Virus record (IMG/VR): IMGVR_UViG_3300045988_034373 | Coordinates: 96,001-160,000 of that record | Length of the DNA stretch: 64,000 bases | Strand: one strand, 5' to 3' | Source: a virus | In this document: positions 2,870 to 40,008 of the stretch, piece after piece | Layout of the letters: each line of letters starts with the position of its first letter | Position numbering within the stretch: position 1 is the stretch's first letter | Program-made: the position numbers and the translations under genes | Notes under the pieces: generated by a model | What the model saw: only the letters and a program-made list of their open reading frames with translations | The model's database searches: none | What the model was told of the DNA's origin: nothing

Positions 2870-2928
2870 GGCTTTAGAAATAAGTGCTGTATTAGATTAC
2901 TCGTTAGGATTTATAAAAGCAAAACACA

Positions 2929-5321: not shown

Positions 5322-5322
5322 T

Positions 5323-6324: not shown

Positions 6325-7283
6325 AGCTGATTAAACCGTCATTTGAAATACTAGAACAAAAGCCTGGATTAGATGGGCTGTTACAACACATAGAAAGATG
6401 TGGTAGAACTTGTTATAAGTCGGAAGATAAAATAACAGAGGATAGTGCAGAGAAATTTGTAGGTATGTTAGTCAAACGTGGTCATACTGCGATGGTTGAG
6501 CATGGTACTGTATATTTGAAGTACGATATTATTGAGCATGGTTCTATGAACCTCCCAAATAAGTATCACTTCAATGAGTATTCTGTAGTAACTATCAATA
6601 ATGAACCTCTTCATGGATATGAAATTCCAGAATATAAAGAGAAGTTCAACGGACACACATATGCTTATATAACTACTAACTATAGAGTACTACTTCAGAA
6701 TGACTGGTTGGATGACCTTAAGTATCAGTGTGAGCCTTCAGAACACCACGTTAAGCGTGTTACTGTTAAGTTTGTATGCGATAGAGGTGTATCTCATGAG
6801 TTCGTAAGGCATAGAGTCTTTAGCTTTGCTCAAGAGAGTACTAGGTATTGTAATTATTCGAAGGATAAGTTTGGTGGAGATTGCACCTTCATTATTCCAT
6901 CCTGGATTGATAGTGGTGACTTTGAAATTCCTAGAACTCTACGTTGGGGTGAAAACCTAACTTATGAGGTAGAGAGAATTACTGGAGACTATAACAATGC
7001 TCCTTTAAGTGTATATTTGCAAAGCTTATTACAGGCAGAAGAAGCATATATGGAGTTGCTAAAGGAGGGTTGGATAGCTCAACAAGCTAGAGCAGTTCTT
7101 CCTAATAGTTTAAAGACCGAGTTAATTATGACTGGTACTATTGAGCAATGGGAAGGATTCTTTAAACTGAGATGTGCAAAGGACGCTCATCCTCAAGCTA
7201 GGGAGTTGGCGGTACCTCTGTATGAAGAGTTTGTCAAACGAGGATATATTACCGCACGAATATCTAAGGAGATATTATGCTAA
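6321..7283 (+). CDS. thyX: flavin-dependent thymidylate synthase ThyX
   Basis: ThyX signature RHRxxSxxxxSxR, present as RHRVFSFAQESTRY. ATGA start overlap with the previous gene. Confidence 0.85.
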   Translation: MKLIKPSFEILEQKPGLDGLLQHIERCGRTCYKSEDKITEDSAEKFVGMLVKRGHTAMVEHGTVYLKYDIIEHGSMNLPNKYHFNEYSVVTINNEPLHGYEIPEYKEKFNGHTYAYITTNYRVLLQNDWLDDLKYQCEPSEHHVKRVTVKFVCDRGVSHEFVRHRVFSFAQESTRYCNYSKDKFGGDCTFIIPSWIDSGDFEIPRTLRWGENLTYEVERITGDYNNAPLSVYLQSLLQAEEAYMELLKEGWIAQQARAVLPNSLKTELIMTGTIEQWEGFFKLRCAKDAHPQARELAVPLYEEFVKRGYITARISKEILC

Positions 7284-7405
7284 CAATACAAGTACTAATA
7301 GAGTATCCAGACCCAATGGATAACTGTCTACCTCCTCAAATCTACATCAGAGAATGGCGAGAGGTAGAAGTTACTCCAGAAGAGTGGTACAGAGTACTTT
7401 GCTAA
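7277..7405 (+). CDS. possible small ORF (42 aa)
   Basis: The ATG overlaps the thyX end (MLTIQVLIEYPDPMDNCLPPQIYIREWREVEVTPEEWYRVLC). It fills an otherwise non-coding gap, and there is no other support. Confidence 0.25.
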   Translation: MLTIQVLIEYPDPMDNCLPPQIYIREWREVEVTPEEWYRVLC

Positions 7406-7439
7406 TCCTATTGGACACCATTATTACAGAGTATAAATT

Positions 7440-7679
7440 ATGAAAATTAATTACACATCTGGATGTACCTGCGATAGTTTAACTATTGATGGTAAAGAAT
7501 CTGCGGATTTATCTCCGAAAGTTATTAAAGATGCTATAGTAAGAGCATTGGAGAAGATTGATGATATATCAACTCTTCAAGACATCTTGACAACTGTAGC
7601 TGAGACTGGAGAGTATGAAGATTTAGGACATTGTGAACAATGTGGAGATTGGATAACCTCCTATACTCTTGAAATTTGA
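7440..7679 (+). CDS. hypothetical protein
   Basis: 79-aa ORF with a C-terminal CEQCGD. Confidence 0.5.
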   Translation: MKINYTSGCTCDSLTIDGKESADLSPKVIKDAIVRALEKIDDISTLQDILTTVAETGEYEDLGHCEQCGDWITSYTLEI

Positions 7680-7680
7680 T

Positions 7681-8368
7681 ATGAAGGCTGAGGAGTACTT
7701 TGGTGACTGGATTGATGTTATTGACAAAGAGGAATTACGTAGAGTAGCAACTTGGGTTAATAAGATTAATTCAGCTAATCTATGTCCTTTCTCCTAAGAA
7801 CATCTTTAAGGCATTTAGGGCTTGCTCATTTAAGGACTGCAAGGTAGTCTTTCTTGGGCAAGACCCTTATCCTCAAAGAGGGGTAGCTACTGGGATACTA
7901 TTTGGTAATTCAGAAGATACTTCTGAGGAGTATCTATCTCCTTCACTTAAAGTAGTTAAAGAGGCTGCTATTAATTATGAAATTCCCCATAACCTTATAG
8001 AGTTTGACAATACGTTAGAGTCTTGGGCTAAGCAAGGAATCTTAATGATTAATACTGCTCTTACTTGTGAAGTAGGTAAAGTTGGAGCACACTTTGACAT
8101 ATGGAAACCCTTTATGTCTAAGTTGATTCACAACATGAGCTATAAAGACGGAGGTATGATTTATGTTCTGTTTGGTAGTCAAGCTGAGTTATTCAAGAAT
8201 GATATAGTAAACAGTCTGAAGACTATTGAGGTATATCATCCAGCATATTATGCTAGGACTGGTAAGAAGATGCCTAGTAGTGTGTTCACTGATATTAATC
8301 AAGCATTGAAGCAGCAATATAACTATCAAATAGAATTTTACAAGGAGACAGAATATGGAACATGTTAA
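7681..8368 (+). CDS. ung: uracil-DNA glycosylase, family 1; requires a +1 frame change at 7795
   Basis: Frame 1 (7681-7797) encodes the Ung N-terminus, ending LCPFS-TAA. Frame 2 is open from 7748 with no start codon before 8045. It encodes KNIFKAF, VVFLGQDPY, LESWAKQGILMINTALT and VYHPAYY, so the catalytic Asp, Tyr, Asn and His positions are all present. Confidence 0.75.
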
Positions 8369-8561
8369 TAGAAAGTCGGTGAATGATAAGCTACGTAAGT
8401 ATGACCATTTAGCTAAGGAAGATGACTTCATTGAGGTTACAGAATGGGCTAATGGTGAAGGTTGGGATGTTACTATAAATGATAGGGTAATCCCACTAAC
8501 TCGTGGCGAATTAGATGCCATTGACTATCTGACTAAAGGTTTAGATTACGATACTAAATAA
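8355..8561 (+). CDS. hypothetical protein
   Basis: 68-aa ORF overlapping the ung end. Confidence 0.5.
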   Translation: MEHVNRKSVNDKLRKYDHLAKEDDFIEVTEWANGEGWDVTINDRVIPLTRGELDAIDYLTKGLDYDTK

Positions 8562-8572
8562 TAATTGAAAAG

Positions 8573-9223
8573 ATGAAAGAACAGAAGTTTGAATTTAGTG
8601 CTAAGAACACCTTCTTCACCTCTGACACTCACTTTGGTCATGCTAACATTATAAAGTTATGCAATAGACCATTTAAGGATGTTGGGGAGATGAATGAAAA
8701 GTTGATTGAGAACTGGAATAAAGTAGTCCCAGAGGACGGTACAGTCTTCCACTTGGGAGATTTTGCCTTCGGTGGTAGTGGACTATGGAACAGTGTTATC
8801 CCTCGTCTGAATGGACAAATCTACTTGATTATAGGTAATCATGATAGAAAGAATCTAAGACAAGGTTATATGGATAAGTTTACAGCTGTATTACCACAGA
8901 TGCAGATTCAAATAGAGAAGAGAAGTATCTACTTGAATCATTATCCATTCCTGTGTTATGGAGGTTCATATCGTGACGATGCTGATGCTGTATGGCAGTT
9001 ATTCGGCCACGTTCATTCTGGTCCTACTAGTTCTGGATTGGATTGTGATAGGTTAGTTCATCTATTCCCATATCAGTATGATGTAGGTGTAGATAACAAC
9101 AATTATACTCCAATCTCTTGGGAAGAAGTAAAGACAAAGATTCAGCACCAAATAGATGAAGGAGTAGAGAAATCTGTCAAGGAACACACAATTCCTGACG
9201 AAGTGTATAAACTAAATGACTAA
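8573..9223 (+). CDS. calcineurin-like metallophosphoesterase
   Basis: Motifs SDTHFGH, GDFAFGG, GNHD and GHVH. Confidence 0.75.
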   Translation: MKEQKFEFSAKNTFFTSDTHFGHANIIKLCNRPFKDVGEMNEKLIENWNKVVPEDGTVFHLGDFAFGGSGLWNSVIPRLNGQIYLIIGNHDRKNLRQGYMDKFTAVLPQMQIQIEKRSIYLNHYPFLCYGGSYRDDADAVWQLFGHVHSGPTSSGLDCDRLVHLFPYQYDVGVDNNNYTPISWEEVKTKIQHQIDEGVEKSVKEHTIPDEVYKLND

Positions 9224-9443
9224 AATATCTTTAGAAATCGACGGTAGGGTATTATCTATGGAGTTACCTTATAATGATGCAACAGCGGAAGAACTTATTA
9301 AGGGCTTTTGTACACTGATGCATGGTCAGACATTCCTTATCTGTACTATTAAGGACTCTCTAAGAGAAGCTGCCCAAGATTATAAGGAGGATATAGAATT
9401 AGGTTATGAATCCAAACACTCTGAGGAAGATTTAAAAGGCTAG
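9216..9443 (+). CDS. hypothetical protein
   Basis: 75-aa ORF overlapping the previous stop. Confidence 0.45.
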   Translation: MTKISLEIDGRVLSMELPYNDATAEELIKGFCTLMHGQTFLICTIKDSLREAAQDYKEDIELGYESKHSEEDLKG

Positions 9444-9449
9444 AAGCTG

Positions 9450-9722
9450 GTGAGTCATTTATCACCAGTGAGCCAGGTAACTCAATGCTTTCCGTTATAT
9501 AAAAGTAATGAGAAGCATTTGGTTACCCCTATTAAGTGGGAAGATTGTAAGGTAGGTGATGTAGTGTTCTGTAAGGTTAGAGGTTCATGTGTAACTCATA
9601 AGGTCTATGCAGTAGACAATGAGAAGGGTTGCTTAATAGGTAACAACAAAGGACACATGAACGGCTGGACTAAGAATGTATACGGACTTGCTCATAAAAT
9701 TGACCAATCATTTAAAGACTAA
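9450..9722 (+). CDS. hypothetical protein
   Basis: 90-aa ORF with a GTG start; the true start is uncertain. GDVVFCKV...THKVYAV...LIGNN is vaguely S24/S26-barrel-like. No catalytic residues were identified. Confidence 0.4.
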   Translation: MSHLSPVSQVTQCFPLYKSNEKHLVTPIKWEDCKVGDVVFCKVRGSCVTHKVYAVDNEKGCLIGNNKGHMNGWTKNVYGLAHKIDQSFKD

Positions 9723-9728
9723 GAAAGC

Positions 9729-10424
9729 TTGAAAATATGTGTAACGTCTGACTTACATGGCATTCTTCCTAAAATAGAAGAGCCTTGTGAGGTAGTGTTG
9801 ATATGCGGAGATATTATGCCACTGCGTATGCAGAGGAACATCCCTCAGAGTGAAAAGTGGCTAAAGACCACATTCGCCGATTGGGTTAATAATCTCCCAT
9901 GCGAATCAGTAATCATGGTGGGAGGTAATCATGACTTTGCCTTAGCTAATATGTATAGGCAACCTCTAAAGATTAACTCAATCTTGACAAATCCTACCAA
10001 TGGTAAACTGGAACTATTAGATAATGAAGCAACATCCGTTATTAGTAAGGATGGTAAGGTATATGATATATGGGGAACTCCCTATTGTAAAATCTTCGGT
10101 AACTGGGCATATATGTATGAGCCAGAGACTTTGATTAAAGCATATGAATCTATGCCTCAGCATTGCGATATTGTTATATCTCACGATGCACCTAAGCTGT
10201 GTGGTTTAGGTGTTATTCACCAGAGATTTGACAGAGAAGATGCTGGTAATCCTTGGTTAGCTGATGAAATGCTTCGTAAACATCCTAGATACACATTCTG
10301 TGGACATATTCATAGTGGTGAGCATGAACTGCAAACCTTTGACGATATGAAGATGGCTAATGTATCTTTAGTAGATGAAACTTACACTGAAACTTTTAAA
10401 CCTTTATACCTCGATGTCGAATAA
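9729..10424 (+). CDS. calcineurin-like metallophosphoesterase (second copy, divergent)
   Basis: TTG start. Motifs SDLHG, CGDIM, GGNHD, SHDAP and GHIHSG. Confidence 0.7.
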   Translation: MKICVTSDLHGILPKIEEPCEVVLICGDIMPLRMQRNIPQSEKWLKTTFADWVNNLPCESVIMVGGNHDFALANMYRQPLKINSILTNPTNGKLELLDNEATSVISKDGKVYDIWGTPYCKIFGNWAYMYEPETLIKAYESMPQHCDIVISHDAPKLCGLGVIHQRFDREDAGNPWLADEMLRKHPRYTFCGHIHSGEHELQTFDDMKMANVSLVDETYTETFKPLYLDVE

Positions 10425-10623
10425 TAAAGTTGTAGTACAAGGAGGAGTTGGATTCCCTGGATTGTTGTTTATAGTACTGTTAGTTTGTAAACTATTTGGT
10501 GCTAACATAACATGGTTCTGGGTATTTGCTCCATTATGGATTCCGCTTGCATTAATAGCTGGATTCTTTATTGTATCAATTCTAATTGCAATACTTGTAG
10601 CATGGAAAAGAAAACTACTTTAG
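10414..10623 (+). CDS. small membrane protein (two predicted TM helices)
   Basis: The ATG at 10414 is preferred. Hydrophobic stretches are GFPGLLFIVLLVCKLF and WFWVFAPLWIPLALIAGFFIVSILIAILV. Confidence 0.55.
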   Translation: MSNNKVVVQGGVGFPGLLFIVLLVCKLFGANITWFWVFAPLWIPLALIAGFFIVSILIAILVAWKRKLL

Positions 10624-10739
10624 TAGTTGTGGACTTCCAGTATGACTTCTGTCTGCTGGGAGCACCACTCTACGTTCCTGGGTCTGATAAGGCTCTGTGG
10701 AACATTTCTCATTTAATTGAGAATAAGAAAGTTTTTTAA
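10602..10739 (+). pseudogene. 45-codon remnant of an isochorismatase/nicotinamidase (PncA-like) N-terminus
   Basis: MEKKTTLVVVDFQYDFCLLGAPLYVPGSDKAL matches the characteristic N-terminal strand and DFxxGG-L-V-PG region of the family. It then stops, and no continuation is found in any frame of 10740-10905. Confidence 0.35.
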
Positions 10740-10789
10740 TTCTAGGTTCAAAAGATTACTTAGTCCTATCATAGTACCTAGAGAACTAT

Positions 10790-10909
10790 ATGATTGACTT
10801 CCTAGAGCTAATCCTAGAATTAGTAAATGTTAAATCACGTAATGAGCTAGTGGCTCTGCTTGTTATGGGCGGAGTACTAGCCGTTATCTATTATTTGTTT
10901 CTTGTATGA
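10790..10909 (+). CDS. possible 39-aa membrane-anchored peptide
   Basis: MIDFLELILELVNVKSRNELVALLVMGGVLAVIYYLFLV. Its stop overlaps the next ATG (ATGA). Confidence 0.35.
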   Translation: MIDFLELILELVNVKSRNELVALLVMGGVLAVIYYLFLV

Positions 10910-11157
10910 AATTATATTATTTATTCTTATTGGTAATGTTCTTCTTAATGGGTTGTACTAATTCATCTAACATTAGTGGTCCAGATGTTATAGGGACATC
11001 TAAGATGAATGGGGATGTGTACAGGTACACCATTGATGAGCATGAGTATATAAAAATGGGTAATGGCTTTGCACACTCTGGTGCTTGTAAGAAGTGCAAG
11101 AAGGAGTTGGAAAGTACTATCCGTAAAATAGTTAAGGAGGAACGTTCACAATGGTAG
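10906..11157 (+). CDS. small lipoprotein
   Basis: Signal peptide with lipobox: MKLYYLFLLVMFFLMG-C. The mature part is about 66 aa, with CKKC. Confidence 0.65.
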   Translation: MKLYYLFLLVMFFLMGCTNSSNISGPDVIGTSKMNGDVYRYTIDEHEYIKMGNGFAHSGACKKCKKELESTIRKIVKEERSQW

Positions 11158-11711
11158 GAGTATTCTTTGGGTCTTTTGACCCACCCCATATTGGTCATGT
11201 TAATATTGTCACAGCTGCACTTAATTCTGGTATTGTTGACAAGGTTATAGTAGTTCCAGCATATAAGAGTGTATGGAAGAACACTGAAACTAAGTGGGAG
11301 TATAGACTCACTATGGCTAAGGAAACCTTTGATAACATTCCTGGAGTAGTTGTGGATGGCATTGAGTATCGTATCGCTAATGGAGAACCATTGCCTACTT
11401 ATAAGACCATTGAAGCATTAAAAGAGATTTATGGTGAGTTTATCATCGTAACATCTGCTGAGACTTATAAGGAGATTCCAAGATGGCAGCATGGTGAGGA
11501 GATACTAAAGGACAATAAGTTCTTAGTAGTAGATGTAGCACACTTTAATAGTGAGGATATTCCACATGATGAAGTGAAGGTTATCTATGCTCCTGATATT
11601 ACAATATGCTCTACAGCTATCAGAAAGTGGGTTGACAATGGTAGAATTATATTGCCATTTGTAACAGATGAAGTAAATTCAATAATTAGAAAGCTTGGGT
11701 TATACAAATGA
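11151..11711 (+). CDS. nicotinamide/nicotinate mononucleotide adenylyltransferase (NadD/NMNAT family)
   Basis: GSFDPPHIGH, the (H/T)xGH nucleotidyltransferase motif, and the C-terminal ICSTAIRKW (SxTxxR). Confidence 0.8.
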   Translation: MVGVFFGSFDPPHIGHVNIVTAALNSGIVDKVIVVPAYKSVWKNTETKWEYRLTMAKETFDNIPGVVVDGIEYRIANGEPLPTYKTIEALKEIYGEFIIVTSAETYKEIPRWQHGEEILKDNKFLVVDVAHFNSEDIPHDEVKVIYAPDITICSTAIRKWVDNGRIILPFVTDEVNSIIRKLGLYK

Positions 11712-12241
11712 GTCAAATCTATGTTTCAGGTCCTTGGTCTTTTGCTTCTGGAGTACAGCAAGTAGTTAAGAGTATAAAGGCTAAATCTAAGGGAGATAAG
11801 GTAGTTTATAGTGAGAAAGGAACTGAATATCAATTCTCTAAACTAGAACAATCCGACTATGTCGTATTCGTGTTGGATGGATTTGCATGGCAACAGAGGT
11901 TAGAAAGTATTTCTAAGGGAATGCTCTCAGAACTCATATGGTGTATTAATCATAGAGTTCCAATGTTCCTAGCTTACAAATCAGCTAACGGATTAGGCAT
12001 ATATGCAACTGAAATAGATGACAATTTAACCTTTAAGGGGATTGCAGGCACTGCTGACACCTTCTATCAGATTATAAACAATCAGTTTGGGACTATTGTA
12101 GCTCCAAATGATACTCCTGGGTTTGTTCTGAGTCACCAAGACACAGTATTAGGGAGTGATTGTGTATATTTGAAGGGAGAGTGGATAGCTGACCCATTAG
12201 ATTTCCTTAATGTTGAACAACCAAAGAGTTACTTTTATTAA
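11708..12241 (+). CDS. hypothetical protein, possibly with a nucleoside 2-deoxyribosyltransferase-like Rossmannoid fold
   Basis: ATGA overlap. IYVSGPWS ... SDYVVFVLDG ... GMLSELIWCINHRVPMFLAY resembles the NDT/DUF4406 pattern. The assignment is tentative. Confidence 0.55.
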   Translation: MSQIYVSGPWSFASGVQQVVKSIKAKSKGDKVVYSEKGTEYQFSKLEQSDYVVFVLDGFAWQQRLESISKGMLSELIWCINHRVPMFLAYKSANGLGIYATEIDDNLTFKGIAGTADTFYQIINNQFGTIVAPNDTPGFVLSHQDTVLGSDCVYLKGEWIADPLDFLNVEQPKSYFY

Positions 12242-12242
12242 T

Positions 12243-12785
12243 ATGAAGAACTTTCCTTTATTAGACGAGAATGGTAAGGAATGGTGGATTAGCCGTTCTA
12301 TTGCTGTAACAGGATGTATATTTACATTCCTAAATGGTAAGTGGTGTGTGCTAGCCAATAAGAGAGGTGAAGGCACTCCCGATTTCCAGGGAATGTGGAA
12401 TATGCCATGTGGTTACTTAGACTTTGATGAAACTACAGCACAAGCTGTGGTTAGAGAGGTTTATGAAGAGACTGGTGTCAAGGTGAATCCAGAGTACTTA
12501 CACTTCTGGAAGTTCAATGACTCTCCAACTCAGAATAGGCAGAATGTATCATTCAGATACTATGCTCTAGTTGATGCACAGCCAGGTAATATCAGTGTAG
12601 GCACTGGTAATGACAGAGGTGGTGAAGAGGACGAGGTAGAAGCTATTGGATGGATTCCAGTAGACTCTATTGATAAATATCAGTGGGCATTTGGTCACGA
12701 TGAGATTATCAAAGAGTTTACTGAGTGGATGCACTTAGAAGATGGAGATTTGGATATGCAAGACATAGACTTAGACCCAGTATGA
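12243..12785 (+). CDS. Nudix hydrolase
   Basis: Complete Nudix box GYLDFDETTAQAVVREVYEETGV (Gx5Ex7REUxEExGU). The ATG at 12243 is preferred. Confidence 0.8.
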   Translation: MKNFPLLDENGKEWWISRSIAVTGCIFTFLNGKWCVLANKRGEGTPDFQGMWNMPCGYLDFDETTAQAVVREVYEETGVKVNPEYLHFWKFNDSPTQNRQNVSFRYYALVDAQPGNISVGTGNDRGGEEDEVEAIGWIPVDSIDKYQWAFGHDEIIKEFTEWMHLEDGDLDMQDIDLDPV

Positions 12786-13159
12786 CATACTTTATAAGTG
12801 GACATAGAGACTTAACATGGGAGGAGTTTGCCAGATGGTATGCTCCTGCCATTAGTAAAGTCATTTGTACAGACAGTGAAGCTAAATTTGTTGTAGGAGA
12901 CTGTGAAGGTGCAGATAGAATGGCACAAGACTATCTATCATCCTGTGGAGTTTTCTTTAAGAATGTCACTGTATATCATATGTTTAAAGCTCCTAGATAT
13001 ATGACTAGAAGCTGTGTCCCTACACAAGGAGGTTTTACATCTGATGTAGAGAGGGATACGGCTATGACTGAGCACTCAGATTGTGATATTGCCTTTATTC
13101 GTAAGGGTAAGGAGTCGTCTGGAACTGCTCAAAACATTCTAAGAAGATGGACAAAGTAG
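12782..13159 (+). CDS. hypothetical protein, possibly SLOG/DprA-LOG-like (DUF2493-type)
   Basis: ATGA overlap with the Nudix stop. FISGHR ... VVGDCEGADRMAQ ... ERDTAM ... SDCDIAF ... SSGTAQN. The assignment is tentative. Confidence 0.55.
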   Translation: MTYFISGHRDLTWEEFARWYAPAISKVICTDSEAKFVVGDCEGADRMAQDYLSSCGVFFKNVTVYHMFKAPRYMTRSCVPTQGGFTSDVERDTAMTEHSDCDIAFIRKGKESSGTAQNILRRWTK

Positions 13160-13329
13160 AAGAATACTTCAATAATAAGAATCTGACTGATAAGGAAAGA
13201 TTTGAAGTCTTGAGGTTACATTTTACTAGTCTATTCCTACAACATCCTAAGATGCTCGAAGTTCTATCTTATAAGGATATAGTACTGAAAGCTAAAGAAT
13301 TTACCAAAGAATATCTAAAGCATGAATAA
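13147..13329 (+). CDS. hypothetical protein
   Basis: 60-aa ORF overlapping both neighbours. Confidence 0.45.
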   Translation: MDKVEEYFNNKNLTDKERFEVLRLHFTSLFLQHPKMLEVLSYKDIVLKAKEFTKEYLKHE

Positions 13330-13832
13330 GTTTATATTCCTAGACATAGATGGGGTTATGAATAGTAATCTCTTCTACTCTGAAAGAACCCAAGATAAGA
13401 GATATAATGATTGGATTAAAGAGCATCCTCAGCGTATAGCTTGGAATGCTTGTAATATTGACCCAAGAGCAGTGGAAAGGCTGAACAGACTTACTGATGC
13501 TACTGGAGCCAAGATTGTTGTATCTTCTACTTGGAGAAGTGATAGTAATTTGCAGGAAGTATTTAACCTTGTTGGAATTAAAGAACCTATACACGATGTA
13601 ACTCCTTATATGAGAAGTAGGCATAGAGGTTCCGAAATCCAAGAGTGGTTAGATAAGCAAACTGAACCTTATCGGTATGTAATCTTTGACGATGATACTG
13701 ATATGTTGGACTCTCAATTACCTTATTTCAATTCAATCTGATTGGTTGAAATGGGGTCTAAGTGATGAAGATGTTGAACAAGCAATACATATTCTAAATG
13801 ATACCGATACAACCGCTGAGACACATCTATAA
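13322..13832 (+). CDS. HAD-superfamily phosphatase (HAD_SAK-like); requires a +1 frame change near 13739
   Basis: HAD motifs FLDIDGVMN, VVSSTWR and VIFDDDTD lie in frame 2, which ends at TGA 13739-13741. Frame 3 is open from 13683 to 13832 and encodes DWLKWGLSDEDVEQAIHIL, the type of C-terminus I recall for this family. Confidence 0.65.
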
Positions 13833-13952
13833 TGACCCTTCATTGGATAGAGCACTTCTATTAAGGAAGCTAGCATCTCTCAGACTAAAAGAGTATGATT
13901 AGTATTGAAGAGTATGAGTATTTAAAACATTTAATAAGAAAGGAGAACGAAA

Positions 13953-14417
13953 ATGCTCAGAGAGCAAATGGGTGCACTTATTAAGCAATCAATGCTTGAT
14001 AAGAATGTAAAGAGAACAGAAGTATTGAGAGCTATCAAGAATGAGTTCTTGGTATACCAAACTGCTAAGGGTGCTAAACCTTTAGATGATGCAGCCGAGT
14101 TTACTATTCTTCGTAAGATGGTAAAACAGAGATTGGACAGTAGAGACCAATACATTGCAGCTGGAAGGAAAGACTTAGCCGATAACGAATCCAAAGAGAT
14201 TCTTGTGCTTGAGTCTTTCCTTCCGAGTGAAGCCTCACCTGAGGAAATTACTAAAGCAATCTATGAGGTTATCTCAGAGAAGGGTTGGGGTGACGGAGAG
14301 ACAGGTCCCCAAATCCCGAAGAAGTGCATGGGAGAGGCTATTAAGTTGGTCAAGGCAAAGCTTGCTAATGTAGATGGTAAACTGTTGGCTGATACAATTA
14401 AGACTTATCTTGTATGA
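13953..14417 (+). CDS. GatB/YqeY-domain protein
   Basis: LRAIKNE ... ILRKMVKQRLDSRDQYIAAGRKDLADNESKEILVLESFLP matches the YqeY family pattern. AGGAG lies 8 nt upstream of the ATG. Confidence 0.75.
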   Translation: MLREQMGALIKQSMLDKNVKRTEVLRAIKNEFLVYQTAKGAKPLDDAAEFTILRKMVKQRLDSRDQYIAAGRKDLADNESKEILVLESFLPSEASPEEITKAIYEVISEKGWGDGETGPQIPKKCMGEAIKLVKAKLANVDGKLLADTIKTYLV

Positions 14418-14626
14418 CACTAAAGGAAATAGTGACTCTTCCAGCTGAAGCAAAGTTTACTCATGCAATAGCTGGAACTCTTTACTATAGAATCACAACT
14501 GACAATATAGTAGTAGAGTTTCCTATTGATATGAATGATAAGGATGATGTAGGTACAACTACATTTGTAGCTTCTTATAAGCCTATTTACATTAATGAGG
14601 TACATAAGAAAGGCTATGGAGAATGA
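14414..14626 (+). CDS. hypothetical protein
   Basis: 70-aa ORF with an ATGA overlap. It is the last gene of the early block. Confidence 0.5.
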   Translation: MTLKEIVTLPAEAKFTHAIAGTLYYRITTDNIVVEFPIDMNDKDDVGTTTFVASYKPIYINEVHKKGYGE

Positions 14627-14729
14627 AACTTTGATTACAATTGATAAGTCTAAGTTAAAGTAATTGTACTGTGTAATAATTAACTAATATGTCTTACTCT
14701 ACTCGAATTTCATAAAATACTTGGTTTAA

Positions 14730-30471: not shown

Positions 30472-33400
30472 ATGCGTTGTATTGTTACTAATGACAAAAA
30501 AGAGATTATTATTGATTCGTTAAACAGTGTCTTTAATGATACTGAATTGATAACCTTAGAGGCTAAGTTCAAGAGATTGGGGGAAGACCTTTCCCCTATT
30601 CTTGTCTTAGACGATGAGCGTTCTATAAGTGTTATATCAGACATTATCAATGAGTGGATTCCAGAAGCTCGTGATGTGGCTGAAATGTTTGAAGATGATG
30701 TCCAACTAGCTCTATTAACTGAGTTAGAAGAAACAAAGGATTTACGAATTACTGACCTTAGAAAGTCAGGTGTAGCTCCAGCTAATAAGGCTGCTGCTAA
30801 TTTAAATATGGACATCAGAGAGGAATCTTTAATTGATTATCAAGAGAAGATTACTTCTTCTACCATCAGTAATCTGTATAGTAGTGCTCAGCAACCTCGA
30901 AATCTAATGCAAGATGAGTTAAGGCGTAGTGTTATATCATCATTCCTCGTAGATTTTAAGGAGGGACGAATCGTTAGAAGTTCTCAGGAATTTAATAAGA
31001 ATCTAGCTGCCCTATTTAATAGACTATTAGCAGATTTAAAGATATATGCAGAGGAGGTTAAAGTCGATTTTGATAATTCTCTACTGCTATATGATGAAGA
31101 TGGCAAATATACAGGACAGTTCTCAGTTGTACAGAAGTTAGCTGATACTCTCTTCGGTGATAAGTTTAATGCTACATACCTTGATCACCTATATGCTACT
31201 AGAACAAGTAGCTTTAGAAGTTCTAAGGCATTAAAAGCATATAACTCATATGTAATTCTAAATAACTTTGATACATTGTTAAAGACCTTACTTGGTAAGA
31301 CTATAACTATTGACCAAAGATATGTAGATTCTTTTACTGATGTTACAAATGACAAGTATAAGTTGCTTGACAATTCTAACTTAGTAAAGACATGGAGAAG
31401 CTCTGATGATGTAGATGCCCTATCTGAAATGGGTAATATCACTAAGATATTGCTAGAGCAGACTCCCATGTTACATTATCCGACTGGAGAGAATAAATTC
31501 AATAACTATCTGGAGGTAAAGGACTTTACTTATGTCTTCAATAAACTTAAGAACATTCCAATCTTCTCTGAAATAGCGGATAAGATTAGGTTTGCACCTA
31601 ACAAGTTTATTCCAAAATTGATTGACACTGCACTTAAAACTAATACTAGAGGATTGACTGCCCATGATAAGGACATTATATTCTCTGTACAAAGAAGGTT
31701 CTATAAGAACAATTTTGACCCCTATGGTGATTCTGAGTATTCTCTAACTGAGATTATCAATAAGGAGTACAAAGAAGGTCAGAATGGTGTTCTTAGTCAG
31801 AATTTAGTTGACTTTGTATCTGGAATGATTGACAAGACTGTATCTACTAACCATATTGGGTATAGACCATCTGACTCTGGCAACATGGAGATATTTGATG
31901 TTAAGGATAATAATCTTAATAGTCACAAGCTGATTATTGAGAAAGGTATCAATAACATTAATAATACTCTATCAACTGAGTATAGAAGAGATTTACTTGA
32001 TAAGTATTCGGTTAGAAGAAATGGAGCTAAGCTTAGCATTAGAATCCCAGGGTACACTACTAAGAATGGTCATTCACTACACGTTGTTCATGCAAACAAT
32101 AGTAGTAGGGGAATATCTGTGTTTACTGTTGATTCTAACAGAAACCAAACTCCATTGTCTTTAAGTGAAATGGATAGAATGGTTCTTGAGGGAGATACAG
32201 ACCTCATAAGAGCCTTAACAGAGTTCTTGGATGATACTCTATACCAATCACTTGGACTGCAGCCCGAAATACTTGATGCCTTTAGAGAAATTGTTGGGGC
32301 TAGCTCCGACATAAGTGCTATAATGCAACTTGCCACGTTAGGTGGACGTTCTTTAATGCGCAATCAAATAGAAAAGGAATTAGCAGATGGAACAATGGAT
32401 AGAGCCTCTGTACCTGAATGTTTCCCAGCAGAGTATAATAAGGAATCTGCCTTGTTTGATAAGAGGACAGGCTCACTGAAGACTGTAATACCTGACCAAG
32501 CTAATATTGTAAGGGATTTAGCTAGGGCACGTATGCTAGTTAATGGTGAAGCCGCCAAGAGTAACTCTCGTGACTTATCTGGTAACTCAATATCTAATAA
32601 TGGTTTAACTAACCTTATTAATACTGCTAAAGTTAACTGGATTGAAGCTAAGCATCTATCTAGTTATGGCTATAATGTAGCTTCATTAGGTAGTATCTTC
32701 GTTAAGAATCCTAATCTTATATTTGGAACTACTGTAAAGAAGGAAGCCCAAAGTAAGGATAGGTCTGTAACTAAGTCTAGTGCTAAGTTCTTCTCGTCTG
32801 AGATTGCCCATAGTTCGATTCTGTATGACTTCTGGTCTGGGTTCCTTAATAAGGATGGTGATATGGCTGGTAAGTTCTATATCCAACCTACAGTATATTC
32901 AGATAAGTCAAGACATTATTTGATTGGAATTGATGGTATGCAAGTACTGACTCCAACATTTGATGAAACTACTGGAGGTAATGTAGGTGGTAAGAGGATT
33001 ACAGAGTCTACTGCTGAGGACATTAGAAATGTTCATTATGCTTCTATGGCTCAGATGTATAGGGTTATGAGGGATAACTTAATGGCTGATTATCAGCAGA
33101 CATTGGCTCCCATACTCCCAATGCTAGGCATTTCAAGTATTACTACGTTCAGCGATGTGGAGAATGTATTTAATGCTATCAATGCTAAGTATAAGCTAAA
33201 GAAGGATGTGGAGTTCTTTAGGTCCAAGGGTATGCCAGTTAATCCAGAGAATGAAGCTGAGTATCAGCAAATCATGCAGAGTCAAATGGCTTTAGCAAGC
33301 TCTCCTCAGGATTTGTATATGTTACTTGCTAAGGATGCTAATACTGACGTTATTGACCAGATTCACTTCTCTGGTAAAGGTAATCTAGGAATTAACAAAT

Positions 33401-36400
33401 TGTTAAAGCATTACTTCGAGATGTTCTTGGATGATGCTAAGACAAGGAGCATTTATAATGCTAAGGTTCTTAGAGAGAAGAAGAAGTTTGCGAGAGACTT
33501 ACTCAATAACAATAAGTTCTTCTTATATGACAAGAGAGGCGAAATTGACCCTGTATTGAATAAGTTCATACATGGTTCAAATAAGTCCGAGACATATAGT
33601 ATGTGGGCTGGTCCAGATTATGAATCTAAGTGGGTAGACCCTGATACGGCTGAACTTATTATTGCTAAACTGGTTGATAAGAACGGTAAGGAGACAAGAC
33701 TTACTAAGAACTCATTATTTGACCCGAAGGATTCTCAAGGCTTAATCCTTAATCCTCTGTTCGATATGTTCTTTGAAGTTGATAATCTAATCTCTAGTAA
33801 TTTCTTAACCTCTACTGTTGGAGGACCTTATGGTCACCCATTAAAGTCTAGAATAGACCCTAATGCAGATGAGGTAACTAAGATTGAACAAGAGGAGGCT
33901 GCTCGTACATTAGCGCAGTTTAAGCGTATGGTTATCTATCCAGCTACTATGCACAACTATGTGCAGAATCAGTTAAACGGTATTCCTCCTCAGTATAATG
34001 TCGCAACCATTAGGGATATGTCTGCTTCAGTTCATAACTACTCTGGAGTTACTTCTAAGGTAGATGTTCAAGATGGTAGTGGTTGGGCTAATCCATTCAT
34101 TGCTATATTGGAGAATAACTCTCTAAATGATGCTAAAGCTGGTGAGGATAAGAAGCCAATTGGTCATAGTATGAATCCTATGTACTTATCTGAATTGGAG
34201 CTGAAATATGCTTTGATGGATATTTACAATGAACGTATCAGAGACTCTCAGAAACCCGACAATGAGGGTGTAAGATGGAAGAATATGCTAAAGAAGATGA
34301 CAGATAGACAATGGGACGTACCCGTTAATTTAACTGTTGCTTTCAATGGCAAACCCGTCAATATAGCTGAGAGTATTGAAAACCCTTACTATAGGGATAT
34401 AGTTACTGGTAAGTTCTATAAAATTGTAGATATTAAAAGGACTGGTGATAATCTGTATGATGTAACACAAGTGCAGGTTAATAAGATGGGTACTGTGATA
34501 GGTCAGCCAGAACTCAAAGGTGGAACTTCTCTTCTTATTGATACTAATTACAAACTATGGGAAGCCTTTGGTGGAGAATGGTCTTGTGATTTAACCGAAA
34601 TGGGATTATTTGAAGGCAACTCTTCTATTGAAGCAGTAGCTTGGTATATGAACAATATCGGCATAGTAAGAAGTAGGGAGAATGAAGAAGCCTATGGAAC
34701 AGACTTTAAGCAAGAGCTTTATACATTCGGAGAGGACTATGAGGAACTTCCTTCTGAGAGTGAAATCCGTAATCCTGATGGAACATTTACTGACTTTGCA
34801 AACTTATCTCAGATAGAAGTGTACCAACCACTAAAACACTCTGATATTCACTATTTAGTTAATACTAGTGGTGCTAAGTGCGGTGCAACTAATATCAATC
34901 CTACAAGTTCTTGGTTCAACGATGCTCCATTGAGAAGCTTCAAGATGTCTACAAGGCATTTAGGTATTCAAATGGATGCTGACCACCATGCCGATGATTC
35001 AGAATTAACTGAGATGTCTCAGGTAATATCTTCATTGGAAGCTAATGGTTATACTCATCATATTGCTAAGGAAGCATATCATGATTTAGGTTCTATTGTA
35101 TATTCTACAATGAAGCGAGAGATTGATGCTGTAGCTGAGTATTATAAGATGGGCGATTCAAGAGAAATTTATAACATTGTAGGTAAGTCATTCTTAAAAT
35201 CATTTGATGATAGTTCTAGCAATAAGGCTAGCTTGGCTGAAGCTATTATCTATAACATGAAGAAGGAGCTTGGTAAGTATCTAAAGATTTCAGAAGCTGA
35301 TGTTAAACTACCCTTTAGTGATAATAATCTATTAGGTGCTGTTATCTCTAGCGTAACTTCTATGATTAATAAGAATGCTATCAAGAGAAAGTATCCAGGT
35401 ATTGCATCTGTATTGATTCCATCACATGGTGCTATTCAAATCTATAAGGCTAATGGAATTGATTATACCTATAGTCAAGCCCAGTTGTCTAAGTTAGATT
35501 TTAACCATCAATTCAACCTGCAACCTATTATACCTATTACCGATATTGAGTTCGGTGAGAGTTATGTAGTTGTTGAAGGCACTCAAGGCTATCCTGTTGA
35601 TTCTAATGGTGTAGTTCCAGAAGGTGCTTCAATGTGGGATGGTGATATGCAGCATGAAGCTCAGTTCAATCTTAATGTTCCTGGAGTTCAGCATATTACC
35701 GTTGATACCATTGAAAAGTATAATGCGTTGAGAAATGACACATCTGGCAGGTTAGTTAAGAGAAATCCTTATAAGGGACGTGACTTACAACCTTCTCGTA
35801 CTCTATTTAAGATTGGAGGTAGACAATATAGTATATTTGATTCTGATTCTATCAAGTCTAGGTATGCTGTAGAGAAAGCCTTTGATAAAGGTGGAGTAAT
35901 TGATTTGGCTAGAAGCGGAGACATTGATGCAGCTATTGAAATACTTAACGGCTTTAGGATTCCTAATGACTTAGTTAGTGCTAAACTAAATGAATTAGCA
36001 AACAAGCTAGCTAATAAGGACTTCTGGAGAATTAGTAACCTTGTTGATGACATTAAGAACCTATATAGGGATGATGTTATCAATACCTTTAAGAGACTAT
36101 CTGCTGATGGTACTGTTATCATTAATGATGAAGTTAAGACTATAGACCCAGAATCCTTAGAGATTAAGGAAGCTGAGTTAATATTACCTAAAATCTATGC
36201 AACTAGGTTCGGTTTAAGAAGAGGTGACTCTCTGAATGAAATAATGAAGAATAAGGACTTCTTCTATAATAGAATCATTGATGCATGGAATGACAAGACT
36301 ACTAAGTATGATATTGCTCTGAAAAGAGCTAATGGTAATCATACCTATATCATTCTTAAGAGTGGTGGTAATGCTAAGATTGTAGAAGGTTTACAGAAAG

Positions 36401-39400
36401 TAAATGTAAACACTATAGTTGAAGACGGAGAGAACACTCTAAGGGTTAATAACAAGGGTGAAGTTGAAGGTCCTCTTAACGATGCTGAAGTTTATGTTGA
36501 TAGTAGAGGTAATGAAATTATCTTTACTGACAATGTTAAGCAGTTCTTAGAGGAGCAGTATGATGATTACGATGATGTAACTCTGAATTTAACGTTGAAA
36601 GAAGGTACTCTAAATTCTGCATTTGATGTAGTTAAGGGTATTGACCACAAACTCACTGAGCAGTATAAGGAAATGGCTCTCCGCATGGAGAACAATGAAG
36701 CTATTACACTTAAACTTGCTTTGCAGGAGAAGAATACTCAACTTGATAGGATGTTCCGTCGTCTAGCAAGGGAGAAGAGAACTTCATTCTTGAAATCTCT
36801 TGAGTTCATTGCAGCTCGTATTCCAGCTCAATCTATGCAGTCATTTATGCCTATGAAGGTAGTTGCATTCTCTGAATCAGAGAAGAATATTGCTTATGTA
36901 TCACACTGGCAGATTTGGTTGCAGGGTTCTGACTTTGATATTGATAAGGTATATCTAATGGGTTCTGAGTTCTCGGACAATGGTAAATATATTGGATGGT
37001 CTCCTTATTTCAATCTATACTCTGATGAAGTAAGAAAGGCTTCTGAATTACTGCCTATGCCAAGTGGTAAAGAGTATCAGGTATTCTATCCTGATGTTCA
37101 ACCAGAAGACTCATTTGATATTACTCAATTAGTTAAGAATGTTAACTTGGCAGCTAGTGATAAACTTGGAACTAACACTAAGCGATTCATTGTTGCATTA
37201 GCAGACTTACTAAAGGGTATCAGAGACAGTGGTTATACTAAATTATGGTTAGATCCGAAGAGTATTATTGAAGCTAATTGGATGAATCTGGATACTGTAG
37301 AGAAGAGAATTAACAGACACTCTCTATATCTATCTAAGATTAAGTCCCCCGATAGGATTATCTCTATGATGAAGAACTCAGTTTCATCTAAGATTTATCG
37401 TATCATCAATGACCCAGCCAATATGGTTTCAGCTTATTCTCCGATTGAGATGAATGAGCCTCAAGCAGCAGCTGAGTTATCTGAATCTGGTAAAGAGGCT
37501 AAAGAATACACTTTGGGTAATCCATTTGTTAAGTGGAATATGCAATATCAAAATATGACTGGTAAGGACGTTATTGGTATTGCAGCTGTAGGTGAGAAGG
37601 TCTTCTTTGCATTATCTTATTACTATAATGAAGCTGCAAGAAGTGGCAATCCTGAATGGCAAGAGAATGCATTCTTTAGAAGGTCATTTAAGCTAATCAA
37701 GTCAAGGGATGGTAAGAAGTATCTTCCATTAGTAAGAAACATTATTGCTAATGTAAACTTCGATGGAGTTGATACATCTAAGGTACTTTGGAACTCTATG
37801 ATTGAACAACAATCTGGAGTTAGTATGGAAGATGCAGGTAAGAAGTATACTGAGGAGGAAGTAGCTTACATACGTGAGCAACTAATGAGTCAGCTCGGAA
37901 GTCAGAAGGACGCATCGTTAGTTATTTCAGCTCTATTATCAGCAGCAACTGATAATGCTAAGGAGTTGATTTTAGCTAAGATTAACTCTGGTTCTGATTT
38001 AGCTTCTGTATATCTGTATTCAATCATGCTAGGTATTGATTTCAAGGACATAGCTAACCTTATGATTTCTAACACAGTTCAGACTATAGCTAAGTTAAAT
38101 AAGACCAATATCTTTGATGAGTATAACCAGAGTTCAACTATTGACAGCGTGTTTAATAAGTTGGAGAATGGTTTACAAATCAAGAATTACTTGAATAAAT
38201 TTGAAGGTCTTAATGAGGCTATTGCAGCTGTCTATCCCAAAGCTAAAGGTAAGTCTACCCAGGCTGCACTGACTGAAATATTCCAGCAGGATAATAGGTT
38301 GGAGCTACTCAAGAAGTTAAGGGAGGAATTTAAGACAACTGAAATCTATAAGAACAGCGGATTCCCTAAGTTCAACCTAATGAGGTTTATGAATGATTTT
38401 GAAGAACTAGCTGTAATGGCTGACTCAATCTTTAAGAATGAGTTAAGTAGAACAGAATACTATACCTTTAAGAGAATTTATAAGCTAGCTCAGGAGGTTA
38501 AACAGTTAGGTTCCATTCTGAGTGCCAATCAAGGATTACAAACTAATATGTTTGACAAGTTTGGCTATCTTGATAGAATTGAACAAGCTGTAAAGGATAG
38601 AGTAGACGAGTATGCAACTGGTATAGGGGATAACAGGGATGTTAGTATCTTTAAAATCCTTGAAGACAAACCATACTTAGAGAAGCTGCATGGAGGTAAG
38701 GAAGGTGCTAAAGTGTATGTTGAAAGCATTGTTAGAGCAGCTAAAACAGAAGGAATGATTGATGACTTTAATACACTGAGATTCCTAAATGATGATAACT
38801 ATAGAAGGCTGGCAACTTCTTTCTATAATCTGATTAAGGGAACCATCAACGTGTTAGATGTTATTACTAGAGTTCCTCACTTTAGAGCTACTATTGATAT
38901 GGCAGCTACAGACTTTGGTATATTTGATGCTATTAGTGCTAAGTTTACTAATGTTTACAATCTGTCCAAGTTACTAATTAGAGATATCTACAAGGTCTCT
39001 TCTAGTAAGGATAGAGATTCTATATATAGGAATGTTGGTAATTTCTTAGATAGTGTTATAAACACTAAATGGTTCAAAGATAGAGGTGTTTCATTTACTA
39101 TAGCTGAGGGGGATAGATACTTTGATAAGTATGGACACACTCATCAAGCTACAGGTAATGAGGTTGTAGATTTAGGTACTGGTCATGGTCAGGCTACTTT
39201 CAAAATGTGGTTTGAGAATACAGTAGTTCCAAGTCTTAAGAGAGGTCTTCAAGAGAAAGGCGGAGAGAGAAAACTATCACTTGCTAGAAACAAGTTTATA
39301 AGTGCTCTTCAGTTGTCTATTTCTGATAGAACTCTTACTCGTGATGTAAGCTATGCGTGGACACTTCCGATGAATATGTCGAGTATTAATTCCATTACTG

Positions 39401-40008
39401 AAATGAACAATTATGTAGAATATCTCACTCACTTTGATGAGTTGGATAAGTATACATTTAATGGAACTCCAGTTTCGGAATTGTTCTTCTATTACAACAT
39501 GATTGTAAATAAGAATAGGTATGGACAGACATCCTTGACAAGATTATTTGAGCACTTTGTTGGTGAGAAGCAGAACTCGGTTGTACAAGATTATTTCAAG
39601 TATATCGGTGATATGGACTACAACAAATTACTAAATAACTCTGATTATTCACTTGAAGATGTGGTTATGGCTTGTGCTATAACTGTCAGCGGAGGTAACT
39701 ATGGTAAGAAATTCCCTTATATTAAGGTCTTCAATTCCATATTACAGACTTATGAGCTGTATTCGTATATGGGTGAGTTTAACTCTTCAGAGCAACTTCC
39801 AGACGAAGTGGCTGATAATCTACCAGAAGGAGATGTCAGTGGTCCTGCTAACTACAAGCTAGTAGACCTTCCAAATCAGAAGGAGCTTATGAACTATTTC
39901 ACCTGGTTGCCAATGAACTTCAGCAAGAAGCAAGATACAGAACCTCTAGAAGATAAACTGTTAAAGCTAATAAATCAAAACAGAGCAATAGTAAAGTATG
40001 AGTGCTAA
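30472..40008 (+). CDS. giant single-chain two-barrel RNA polymerase (crAss-like virion RNAP type), 3178 aa
   Basis: The beta-like barrel motif FKMSTRHLGIQ (nt 34942-34965) can be compared with bacterial beta KMAGRHGNKG. The beta-prime-like metal site is GSDFDIDK (DxDxD, nt 36931-36945). Confidence 0.8.
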   Translation: MRCIVTNDKKEIIIDSLNSVFNDTELITLEAKFKRLGEDLSPILVLDDERSISVISDIINEWIPEARDVAEMFEDDVQLALLTELEETKDLRITDLRKSGVAPANKAAANLNMDIREESLIDYQEKITSSTISNLYSSAQQPRNLMQDELRRSVISSFLVDFKEGRIVRSSQEFNKNLAALFNRLLADLKIYAEEVKVDFDNSLLLYDEDGKYTGQFSVVQKLADTLFGDKFNATYLDHLYATRTSSFRSSKALKAYNSYVILNNFDTLLKTLLGKTITIDQRYVDSFTDVTNDKYKLLDNSNLVKTWRSSDDVDALSEMGNITKILLEQTPMLHYPTGENKFNNYLEVKDFTYVFNKLKNIPIFSEIADKIRFAPNKFIPKLIDTALKTNTRGLTAHDKDIIFSVQRRFYKNNFDPYGDSEYSLTEIINKEYKEGQNGVLSQNLVDFVSGMIDKTVSTNHIGYRPSDSGNMEIFDVKDNNLNSHKLIIEKGINNINNTLSTEYRRDLLDKYSVRRNGAKLSIRIPGYTTKNGHSLHVVHANNSSRGISVFTVDSNRNQTPLSLSEMDRMVLEGDTDLIRALTEFLDDTLYQSLGLQPEILDAFREIVGASSDISAIMQLATLGGRSLMRNQIEKELADGTMDRASVPECFPAEYNKESALFDKRTGSLKTVIPDQANIVRDLARARMLVNGEAAKSNSRDLSGNSISNNGLTNLINTAKVNWIEAKHLSSYGYNVASLGSIFVKNPNLIFGTTVKKEAQSKDRSVTKSSAKFFSSEIAHSSILYDFWSGFLNKDGDMAGKFYIQPTVYSDKSRHYLIGIDGMQVLTPTFDETTGGNVGGKRITESTAEDIRNVHYASMAQMYRVMRDNLMADYQQTLAPILPMLGISSITTFSDVENVFNAINAKYKLKKDVEFFRSKGMPVNPENEAEYQQIMQSQMALASSPQDLYMLLAKDANTDVIDQIHFSGKGNLGINKLLKHYFEMFLDDAKTRSIYNAKVLREKKKFARDLLNNNKFFLYDKRGEIDPVLNKFIHGSNKSETYSMWAGPDYESKWVDPDTAELIIAKLVDKNGKETRLTKNSLFDPKDSQGLILNPLFDMFFEVDNLISSNFLTSTVGGPYGHPLKSRIDPNADEVTKIEQEEAARTLAQFKRMVIYPATMHNYVQNQLNGIPPQYNVATIRDMSASVHNYSGVTSKVDVQDGSGWANPFIAILENNSLNDAKAGEDKKPIGHSMNPMYLSELELKYALMDIYNERIRDSQKPDNEGVRWKNMLKKMTDRQWDVPVNLTVAFNGKPVNIAESIENPYYRDIVTGKFYKIVDIKRTGDNLYDVTQVQVNKMGTVIGQPELKGGTSLLIDTNYKLWEAFGGEWSCDLTEMGLFEGNSSIEAVAWYMNNIGIVRSRENEEAYGTDFKQELYTFGEDYEELPSESEIRNPDGTFTDFANLSQIEVYQPLKHSDIHYLVNTSGAKCGATNINPTSSWFNDAPLRSFKMSTRHLGIQMDADHHADDSELTEMSQVISSLEANGYTHHIAKEAYHDLGSIVYSTMKREIDAVAEYYKMGDSREIYNIVGKSFLKSFDDSSSNKASLAEAIIYNMKKELGKYLKISEADVKLPFSDNNLLGAVISSVTSMINKNAIKRKYPGIASVLIPSHGAIQIYKANGIDYTYSQAQLSKLDFNHQFNLQPIIPITDIEFGESYVVVEGTQGYPVDSNGVVPEGASMWDGDMQHEAQFNLNVPGVQHITVDTIEKYNALRNDTSGRLVKRNPYKGRDLQPSRTLFKIGGRQYSIFDSDSIKSRYAVEKAFDKGGVIDLARSGDIDAAIEILNGFRIPNDLVSAKLNELANKLANKDFWRISNLVDDIKNLYRDDVINTFKRLSADGTVIINDEVKTIDPESLEIKEAELILPKIYATRFGLRRGDSLNEIMKNKDFFYNRIIDAWNDKTTKYDIALKRANGNHTYIILKSGGNAKIVEGLQKVNVNTIVEDGENTLRVNNKGEVEGPLNDAEVYVDSRGNEIIFTDNVKQFLEEQYDDYDDVTLNLTLKEGTLNSAFDVVKGIDHKLTEQYKEMALRMENNEAITLKLALQEKNTQLDRMFRRLAREKRTSFLKSLEFIAARIPAQSMQSFMPMKVVAFSESEKNIAYVSHWQIWLQGSDFDIDKVYLMGSEFSDNGKYIGWSPYFNLYSDEVRKASELLPMPSGKEYQVFYPDVQPEDSFDITQLVKNVNLAASDKLGTNTKRFIVALADLLKGIRDSGYTKLWLDPKSIIEANWMNLDTVEKRINRHSLYLSKIKSPDRIISMMKNSVSSKIYRIINDPANMVSAYSPIEMNEPQAAAELSESGKEAKEYTLGNPFVKWNMQYQNMTGKDVIGIAAVGEKVFFALSYYYNEAARSGNPEWQENAFFRRSFKLIKSRDGKKYLPLVRNIIANVNFDGVDTSKVLWNSMIEQQSGVSMEDAGKKYTEEEVAYIREQLMSQLGSQKDASLVISALLSAATDNAKELILAKINSGSDLASVYLYSIMLGIDFKDIANLMISNTVQTIAKLNKTNIFDEYNQSSTIDSVFNKLENGLQIKNYLNKFEGLNEAIAAVYPKAKGKSTQAALTEIFQQDNRLELLKKLREEFKTTEIYKNSGFPKFNLMRFMNDFEELAVMADSIFKNELSRTEYYTFKRIYKLAQEVKQLGSILSANQGLQTNMFDKFGYLDRIEQAVKDRVDEYATGIGDNRDVSIFKILEDKPYLEKLHGGKEGAKVYVESIVRAAKTEGMIDDFNTLRFLNDDNYRRLATSFYNLIKGTINVLDVITRVPHFRATIDMAATDFGIFDAISAKFTNVYNLSKLLIRDIYKVSSSKDRDSIYRNVGNFLDSVINTKWFKDRGVSFTIAEGDRYFDKYGHTHQATGNEVVDLGTGHGQATFKMWFENTVVPSLKRGLQEKGGERKLSLARNKFISALQLSISDRTLTRDVSYAWTLPMNMSSINSITEMNNYVEYLTHFDELDKYTFNGTPVSELFFYYNMIVNKNRYGQTSLTRLFEHFVGEKQNSVVQDYFKYIGDMDYNKLLNNSDYSLEDVVMACAITVSGGNYGKKFPYIKVFNSILQTYELYSYMGEFNSSEQLPDEVADNLPEGDVSGPANYKLVDLPNQKELMNYFTWLPMNFSKKQDTEPLEDKLLKLINQNRAIVKYEC

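Follow-up and report, generated by a model that had tools for sequence, protein, structure and literature searches.

The window analysed here is a 64,000-nucleotide stretch of the genome of a gut crAss-like phage, identical to ENA ERZ28661991 scaffold_21 (182 kb). At position 13322 it enters a gene for a phosphatase of the HAD_SAK_2 family, the reading frame of which is interrupted shortly before its end. The parts of this gene are as follows.

13322..13729, + strand: first 136 codons of the HAD_SAK_2 phosphatase gene, in their original frame, with motif I (DIDGV), motif II (SST), R102/G103 and motif IV (DDD)
13730..13731, + strand: AA, against a single A in all relatives, the surplus base being a private 1-nt insertion that shifts the frame (DNA alignments)
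13739..13741, + strand: premature TGA, three codons past the insertion; the product ends ...YFNSI
13731..13832, + strand: ancestral codons 137-169 and TAA, now in the +1 frame (tblastn, conservation, AlphaFold2 model, Pfam)

The ORF that begins with ATG at 13322 encodes 139 aa and ends at 13741, with its TGA stop at 13739-13741. A first-pass annotation, made from the letters alone, had recognized its product as a HAD_SAK-like phosphatase with DIDGV, SSTWR and DDDTD in one frame that ends at this TGA. Both statements stand: the product matches Pfam PF18143 (HAD_SAK_2) with 87.9 bits, and the three segments lie at residues 8-12, 68-72 and 123-127. HAD motifs I (DxDGV), II (S/T), III (basic) and IV (DD) are all present (SST at 68-70, R102/G103, DDD at 123-125), and the columns of the catalytic motifs are invariant in an alignment of 31 homologues. 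A PDB sequence search with the HAD protein gave no meaningful match (best E = 0.7, an unrelated protein), and Foldseek against the PDB returned only weak, generic matches to the HAD superfamily, the best of them to MDP-1 with a TM score of 0.55.

The match of the 139-aa product to PF18143 is confined to profile positions 2-113 of 139. Once the extra A is removed, the repaired product scores 94.0 bits and covers positions 2-139 of 139; the Pfam gathering threshold, 27.5 bits, is exceeded by both. A complete HAD_SAK_2 domain in a single frame, which is what all relatives have, is not found here, where profile positions 114-139 sit in the +1 frame. That frame is open from 13683 (after a TAA at 13680-13682) to the TAA at 13830-13832, just as had been reported, and it reads ...DWLKWGLSDEDVEQAIHILNDTDTTAETHL. 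By our estimate, an open +1 frame of ~31 codons would arise by chance about 1 time in 10 at the given base composition; the evidence therefore lies not in its openness but in the homology of the +1 segment to relatives, tblastn placing query residues 137-169 at 13731-13829 with 97% identity. The 31 homologues, the least similar at 41% identity, all have G145, and F136, A154, L158 and N159 are near-invariant among them. The AlphaFold2 model of the repaired protein (pLDDT 94.7, pTM 0.90) has residues 136-138 in a beta-strand and 148-159 in a helix. Conservation and model together indicate that the C-terminal strand and helix belong to the conserved core fold of the family, and the suggestion that the family C-terminus is encoded in the +1 frame is borne out by Pfam, the 31-homologue conservation, the model and tblastn in agreement. 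Since the 139-aa product has the catalytic motifs but neither the final beta-strand nor the C-terminal helix, this is most likely a loss-of-function allele, a young pseudogene.

The change of frame had been placed at the stop codon itself, at ATC-TGA-T, with a profile comparison of the fused and the truncated products proposed as a check. Fusion at that point does extend the match, to profile positions 2-138 as against 2-113, but it gains only 0.4 bits (88.3 against 87.9), and the DNA alignment puts the extra base 8-9 nt upstream of the TGA, in codon 137. Relatives have TTC-ATT-CAA where the window has TTCAATTCAA, with one additional A at 13730/13731; read in codons, relatives have TAT TTC ATT CAA TCT GAT TGG (YFIQSDW) and the window TATTTCAATTCAATCTGATTGG, so that the homology junction is YF/IQSDW. 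The local ttcaa-ttcaa-tc, which does lack a homopolymer as described, owes its duplication to the inserted A, relatives having ttca-ttcaa. Removal of the A gives ...LPYF-IQS-DWLKWGL... and a protein of 169 aa that is exactly P0136, present on four other contigs from other samples. An inserted base, which the first-pass annotation had itself set against its own proposal, is in substance what is found, as one extra A relative to the relatives.

That A is missing from the 27-31 relatives that cover the site, including L077 and L078 (98.9% identical) and L088 (99.6%), and from samples of the same study that went through the same assembly pipeline (L080, L086, L141). More than 45 related loci have an uninterrupted HAD gene of 161-169 aa and none has the frameshift; in IMG/VR, ~27 close relatives at 77-97% amino-acid identity all have a single-frame HAD, and the protein database holds many single-frame homologues of 161-169 aa. 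When the fused query is compared with other phage genomes, one tblastn piece spans the junction. Exact scanning of IMG/VR with the insertion-bearing 25-mer gave 0 matches, a degenerate scan of JGI metagenomes gave three, all unrelated chance matches on inspection, and megablast of 12700-14500 against GenBank phages gave no match. Compared with intact orthologues, the HAD lesion is a single indel with no other disruption. By all these comparisons the HAD gene is split by one private extra A, an ordinary frameshift (mutation or read error) and not programmed recoding. (The 90%-identity protein cluster that holds HAD, P0001, also contains the unrelated 61-aa ORF that lies downstream; the two are probably bridged there by a HAD-61-aa fusion variant, P0041, and shared membership of that cluster is therefore no evidence of homology.)

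The HAD insertion has company. An alignment of 16.7 kb of the window to L077 and L078 has 177 mismatches; its indels number eight, each of them a single base added in the window.

7400: private insertion, TT to TTT, in a small ORF from 7277 (51 aa in relatives, + strand); also in Logan contig L082
7790: private insertion, TT to TTT, in the uracil-DNA glycosylase gene; also in Logan contig L082
9431: private insertion, TT to TTT, in the 107-aa gene
9489: private insertion, TT to TTT, in the 107-aa gene
9711: private insertion, TT to TTT, in the 107-aa gene
13731 (13730/13731): private insertion, A to AA, in HAD
13890 (13887-13890): private insertion, AAA to AAAA, in the 61-aa gene
14588 (14586-14588): private insertion, TT to TTT, in the 82-aa gene

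The genes affected besides HAD and the small ORF, and the junction of a deletion that lies among them, are these.

7681..8368, + strand: uracil-DNA glycosylase gene, 228 aa in relatives; frame lost after codon 36; the repaired product has the Pfam UDG match
9406..9732, + strand: 107-aa gene with three private T insertions; repaired product is P0138, on 77 contigs
10733..10734, no strand: junction of a contig-private 2.65-kb deletion (relatives: L077 4759-7412), seen in Logan contig L138
13798..13984, + strand: conserved 61-aa gene overlapping the 3' end of HAD and the 5' end of the YqeY gene; repaired product is exactly P0135, on 32 contigs
14414..14661, + strand: 82-aa gene with a private T insertion; repaired product is P0137, on at least 1000 contigs

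Six genes are broken in all (the small ORF, the uracil-DNA glycosylase gene, the 107-aa gene by three insertions, HAD, the 61-aa gene and the 82-aa gene). The eight insertions are all +1, all extend short A or T runs and all fall within 7.2 kb (7400-14588), a segment with no private deletions apart from the 2.65-kb one. Four of the five reconstructed proteins are exact matches to proteins on 4 to >1000 other contigs. Outside the cluster, no private frameshifting coding indels are found in ~44 kb (of the ~51 kb that at least five relatives cover), and the large ORFs of 1596, 2896, 3178, 1539, 1563 and 1048 aa are intact. Private substitutions between 8 and 16 kb number only about 5, and GC skew at 7-15 kb is nothing special. 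A scan of 46 loci of the region makes the window an outlier, with 7 private frameshifting indels as against 0-3 in each of the other loci. Lost with the 2.65-kb deletion are the NAPRTase gene and a 60-aa ORF, together with the 3' part of a nicotinamidase-like gene and the 5' part of the gene for NAD synthase; the junction is mid-way in the cluster, which is roughly centred there.

Several features of the neighbourhood can be recorded at this point. The T insertion at 9489 puts the body of the 107-aa protein in frame with an upstream GTG at 9450, with the consequence that gene callers report a 90-aa ORF at 9450-9722 with a spurious N-terminus. The 61-aa gene (13798-13984), which overlaps the 3' end of HAD in another frame, is found on >1000 contigs and has no Pfam match; it appears to be truly coding, because LLLRKL is kept between relatives despite many synonymous changes. 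At 30000-42000 (the 3178-aa ORF, 30472..40008, and its neighbours) private substitutions run at 40-56 per kb, as against 0-10 elsewhere; the divergence of the giant ORF from the available relatives is far greater than that of the remaining window, which suggests a mosaic or hypervariable segment.

The cluster lies in an accessory module that extends over ~1-14500 of the window and a further 2.3 kb upstream (seen in L081), and that comprises RNA-repair-type, nucleotide-metabolism and NAD-salvage groups. The RNA-repair-type genes encode PNKP with a HAD_PNKP domain, a nucleotidyltransferase of the PolyA_pol family, a CYTH protein and two metallophosphatases; nucleotide metabolism is represented by ThyX and UDG; and relatives also have the complete Preiss-Handler NAD-salvage set (nicotinamidase-like, NAPRTase, NAD synthase, NMNAT) together with a Nudix gene. 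The module possibly serves as counter-defence against host systems that deplete NAD or cleave tRNA.

HAD is dispensable and is recurrently lost in the phage population. A -1 allele (TT to T in ACTTGG, at codon ~71) occurs in L150-L153, from four samples and at least two studies, and a second, independent -1 allele (codon ~63) occurs in L154, from another sample; the resulting truncation at codons ~63-71 destroys motifs II-IV (proteins P0084 and P0086). Deletion variants are many: some have in-frame internal deletions, and in others the 3' part of HAD is fused to upstream or downstream genes, the partners being NadE, PncA-like, NAPRTase, NMNAT, an upstream 125/144-aa ORF, the downstream 61-aa gene and the YqeY gene. 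The variants that end inside HAD are listed below.

P0018, P0020, P0022, P0027, P0029, P0031, P0032, P0034, P0035, P0037
P0041, P0044, P0047, P0049, P0052, P0069, P0096, P0097, P0107

In L035 and L036 nearly the whole HAD gene is lost. The region at 10.5-14 kb looks like a deletion hot spot, and some of these variants may be assembly chimeras. Since HAD is dispensable, a strain-specific knock-out is unsurprising.

Could the ribosome, or RNA polymerase, restore the full-length protein from the sequence of the window? Programmed +1 frameshifting or transcriptional slippage, a reading to which the first-pass annotation points by implication, would account for a downstream +1 frame that is open and perfectly conserved and for a zero-frame stop close behind the junction. 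The frameshift is nevertheless missing from every homologous locus examined, including the >45 single-frame loci and the database proteins, and the homology junction lies before the TGA, so that a shift at AUC-UGA-U would yield NSI rather than the conserved IQS. There is neither a shifty stop of the CUU-UGA type nor a homopolymer at the site, no purine-rich, Shine-Dalgarno-like run within 20 nt upstream, and RNA folding of 13742-13840 is no better than that of shuffled sequences (z = 0.11). To look for a possible frameshift suppressor the window was scanned for tRNA genes, and none was detected. Slippage typically uses homopolymers of at least 6-9 A or T, and no run at the site is longer than TTT or AA. 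The seven other +1 insertions on the contig lack a common motif, the quadruplets that they would require differ, and a site-specific recoding signal would not explain insertions in neighbouring genes. We give the recoding proposal next to no credence; these sequence comparisons leave programmed frameshifting and transcriptional slippage effectively refuted. (Reassignment of TGA to Trp was also tried and rejected: read-through in frame 0 gives an unrelated peptide, the family sequence being in +1, and the standard code leaves the large ORFs intact.) Nor do we put much faith in the 139-aa protein as a functional, selected variant, for example one that escapes a host defence sensing the protein, an idea that strikes us as very improbable. 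It has in its favour that all four HAD catalytic motifs are retained and that repeated, independent inactivation and deletion could reflect positive selection for loss; but the missing C-terminal strand and helix are conserved family-wide as part of the core fold, the other alleles destroy motifs II-IV, so that the common denominator is loss and not a specific truncated form, and the breakage takes in six neighbouring genes at once.

The weightier alternative is that the eight insertions are errors in the reads or library of one sample and that the HAD of the phage is actually intact, at 169 aa. All eight events are +1 extensions of runs with flanks identical to those of relatives; the repaired proteins match common alleles exactly; private insertions outnumber private substitutions, with three in a single 107-codon gene, a spectrum abnormal for natural decay; none of the other 46 loci scanned is such an outlier as the window; and every contig with the allele comes from one sample, all evidence for the HAD insertion being from one read set. 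Against an artefact stands the confinement of the insertions to 7.2 kb of 64 kb (for a uniform error process p is about 3e-8 by our calculation), with ~18 kb of giant ORFs intact; contigs from sister samples that share study and pipeline are clean. Random Illumina errors are dominated by substitutions, and consensus 1-base insertions at 1-3-nt runs without substitutions are not a known Illumina profile; the few private substitutions and the exact matches of the repaired proteins thus make a profile unlike random Illumina error. Logan contigs, made by an independent assembler from run ERR1137206 of sample SAMEA3664750, are 100% identical to window 7075-8789, insertions 7400 and 7790 included, and Logan contig L138 is 100% identical to 9945-12875, the private deletion junction included. 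Two of the eight insertions, and with them the junction of the deletion, are thus in the reads and not the making of one assembler; the HAD site is outside the span of the retrieved Logan contigs. The truncated HAD, with the 70-aa and 75-aa products, is also on a second deposited contig (JGI/IMG, 181,962 bp). We consider an artefact a substantial possibility, though it is not the account that we adopt. As the origin of the insertion, a genuine mutation in the sampled phage seems to us somewhat more probable than a read error, and the reading that we prefer, with moderate confidence, is of a private, non-programmed single-base insertion (A to AA), most likely a strain-specific loss-of-function mutation.

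If the insertions are genuine, their placement invites a further conjecture. To the left of the deletion junction all five are T, and to its right two of three are A; runs of A and of T occur equally often on the two sides. Seven of the eight would fit an extra A in a resynthesised strand (binomial p about 0.035, with n=8 and post hoc). The phage encodes a family-A polymerase, for which the nearest relatives in GenBank are from crAss-like phages. For family-A polymerases under low-fidelity conditions, single-base additions in runs of 1-3 bases exceed deletions; pol theta, a Klenow thumb mutant, and T7 polymerase when it lacks thioredoxin can be addition-prone in short runs (PMC2441791). The NAD-salvage module of a crAss-like phage might have suffered a double-strand break that was healed with the 2.65-kb deletion; after 5'-3' resection, tracts of ~3.5 kb on both sides would have been refilled by an addition-prone polymerase of the family-A type, which would leave strand-asymmetric single-base additions, T to the left and A to the right. 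All eight insertions would then come from one episode of low-fidelity repair synthesis around the break, and they would have been tolerated because the genes affected are accessory. This repair-synthesis scenario is put forward post hoc and as hypothesis only. That the eight additions are the scar of a single localized hypermutation, a natural, kataegis-like indel cluster in a metagenome-derived phage genome that knocked out six accessory genes, HAD included, at once, is a notion that we think rather unlikely. It does not generalize: relatives with other deletions (L066, L075, L076) show no flanking insertion clusters, and a rule that deletions are flanked by +1 clusters was rejected.

As a candidate for recoding the HAD site is of no importance, being a private one-base insertion in a dispensable gene and in itself ordinary. 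The only unusual aspect is its company, eight +1 insertions around a deletion. Should these insertions be real, they would constitute a rare natural case of clustered, strand-biased +1 mutagenesis around a phage deletion junction, and would offer a handle on break repair in the variable accessory region of crAss-like phages. In practical terms, the contig is unsuitable as evidence for frameshifted or split genes, and for six of its genes a correct reading requires the removal of one base. The repeated loss of HAD and of the adjacent NAD-salvage genes bears on the purpose of these auxiliary genes.

It remains to set the locus beside better-known systems. The site in prfB, the gene for RF2, is CUU-UGA-C with an upstream Shine-Dalgarno-like element. 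The HAD site resembles +1 frameshifting of this type in requiring a change of frame by +1 and in having a zero-frame UGA near the junction; it differs in not being conserved in homologues, in having its junction off the stop, and in having no shifty codon-stop pair and no Shine-Dalgarno-like stimulator. PF18143 is the HAD domain of the 'Swiss Army Knife' RNA repair proteins, present here in a stand-alone phage form. Homologues of this stand-alone kind, of 150-200 aa, are known in Vibrio, Shewanella, Klebsiella and other phages. The window's gene shares with them a score far over the gathering threshold, the DxDGV, SS(T)WR, RG and DDD motifs and a context of RNA-repair-type genes (PNKP, nucleotidyltransferase, CYTH, metallophosphatases); unlike other members, it has its domain divided over two frames by a 1-nt insertion. 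The eight +1 run extensions, in a phage with a family-A polymerase, are like addition-prone family-A synthesis (PMC2441791), a likeness in signature only; pol theta also makes many substitutions, whereas the window has few private ones. The nearest parallel for HAD by itself is the ordinary frameshift pseudogene of an accessory phage gene, with a single indel relative to intact orthologues and then a premature stop, in a gene that is independently frameshifted (the -1 alleles of L150-L153 and L154) and deleted elsewhere in the population. What sets the locus apart from ordinary pseudogene decay is its unusual spectrum: within 7 kb there are seven other private insertions, all of them +1, and not one private deletion.
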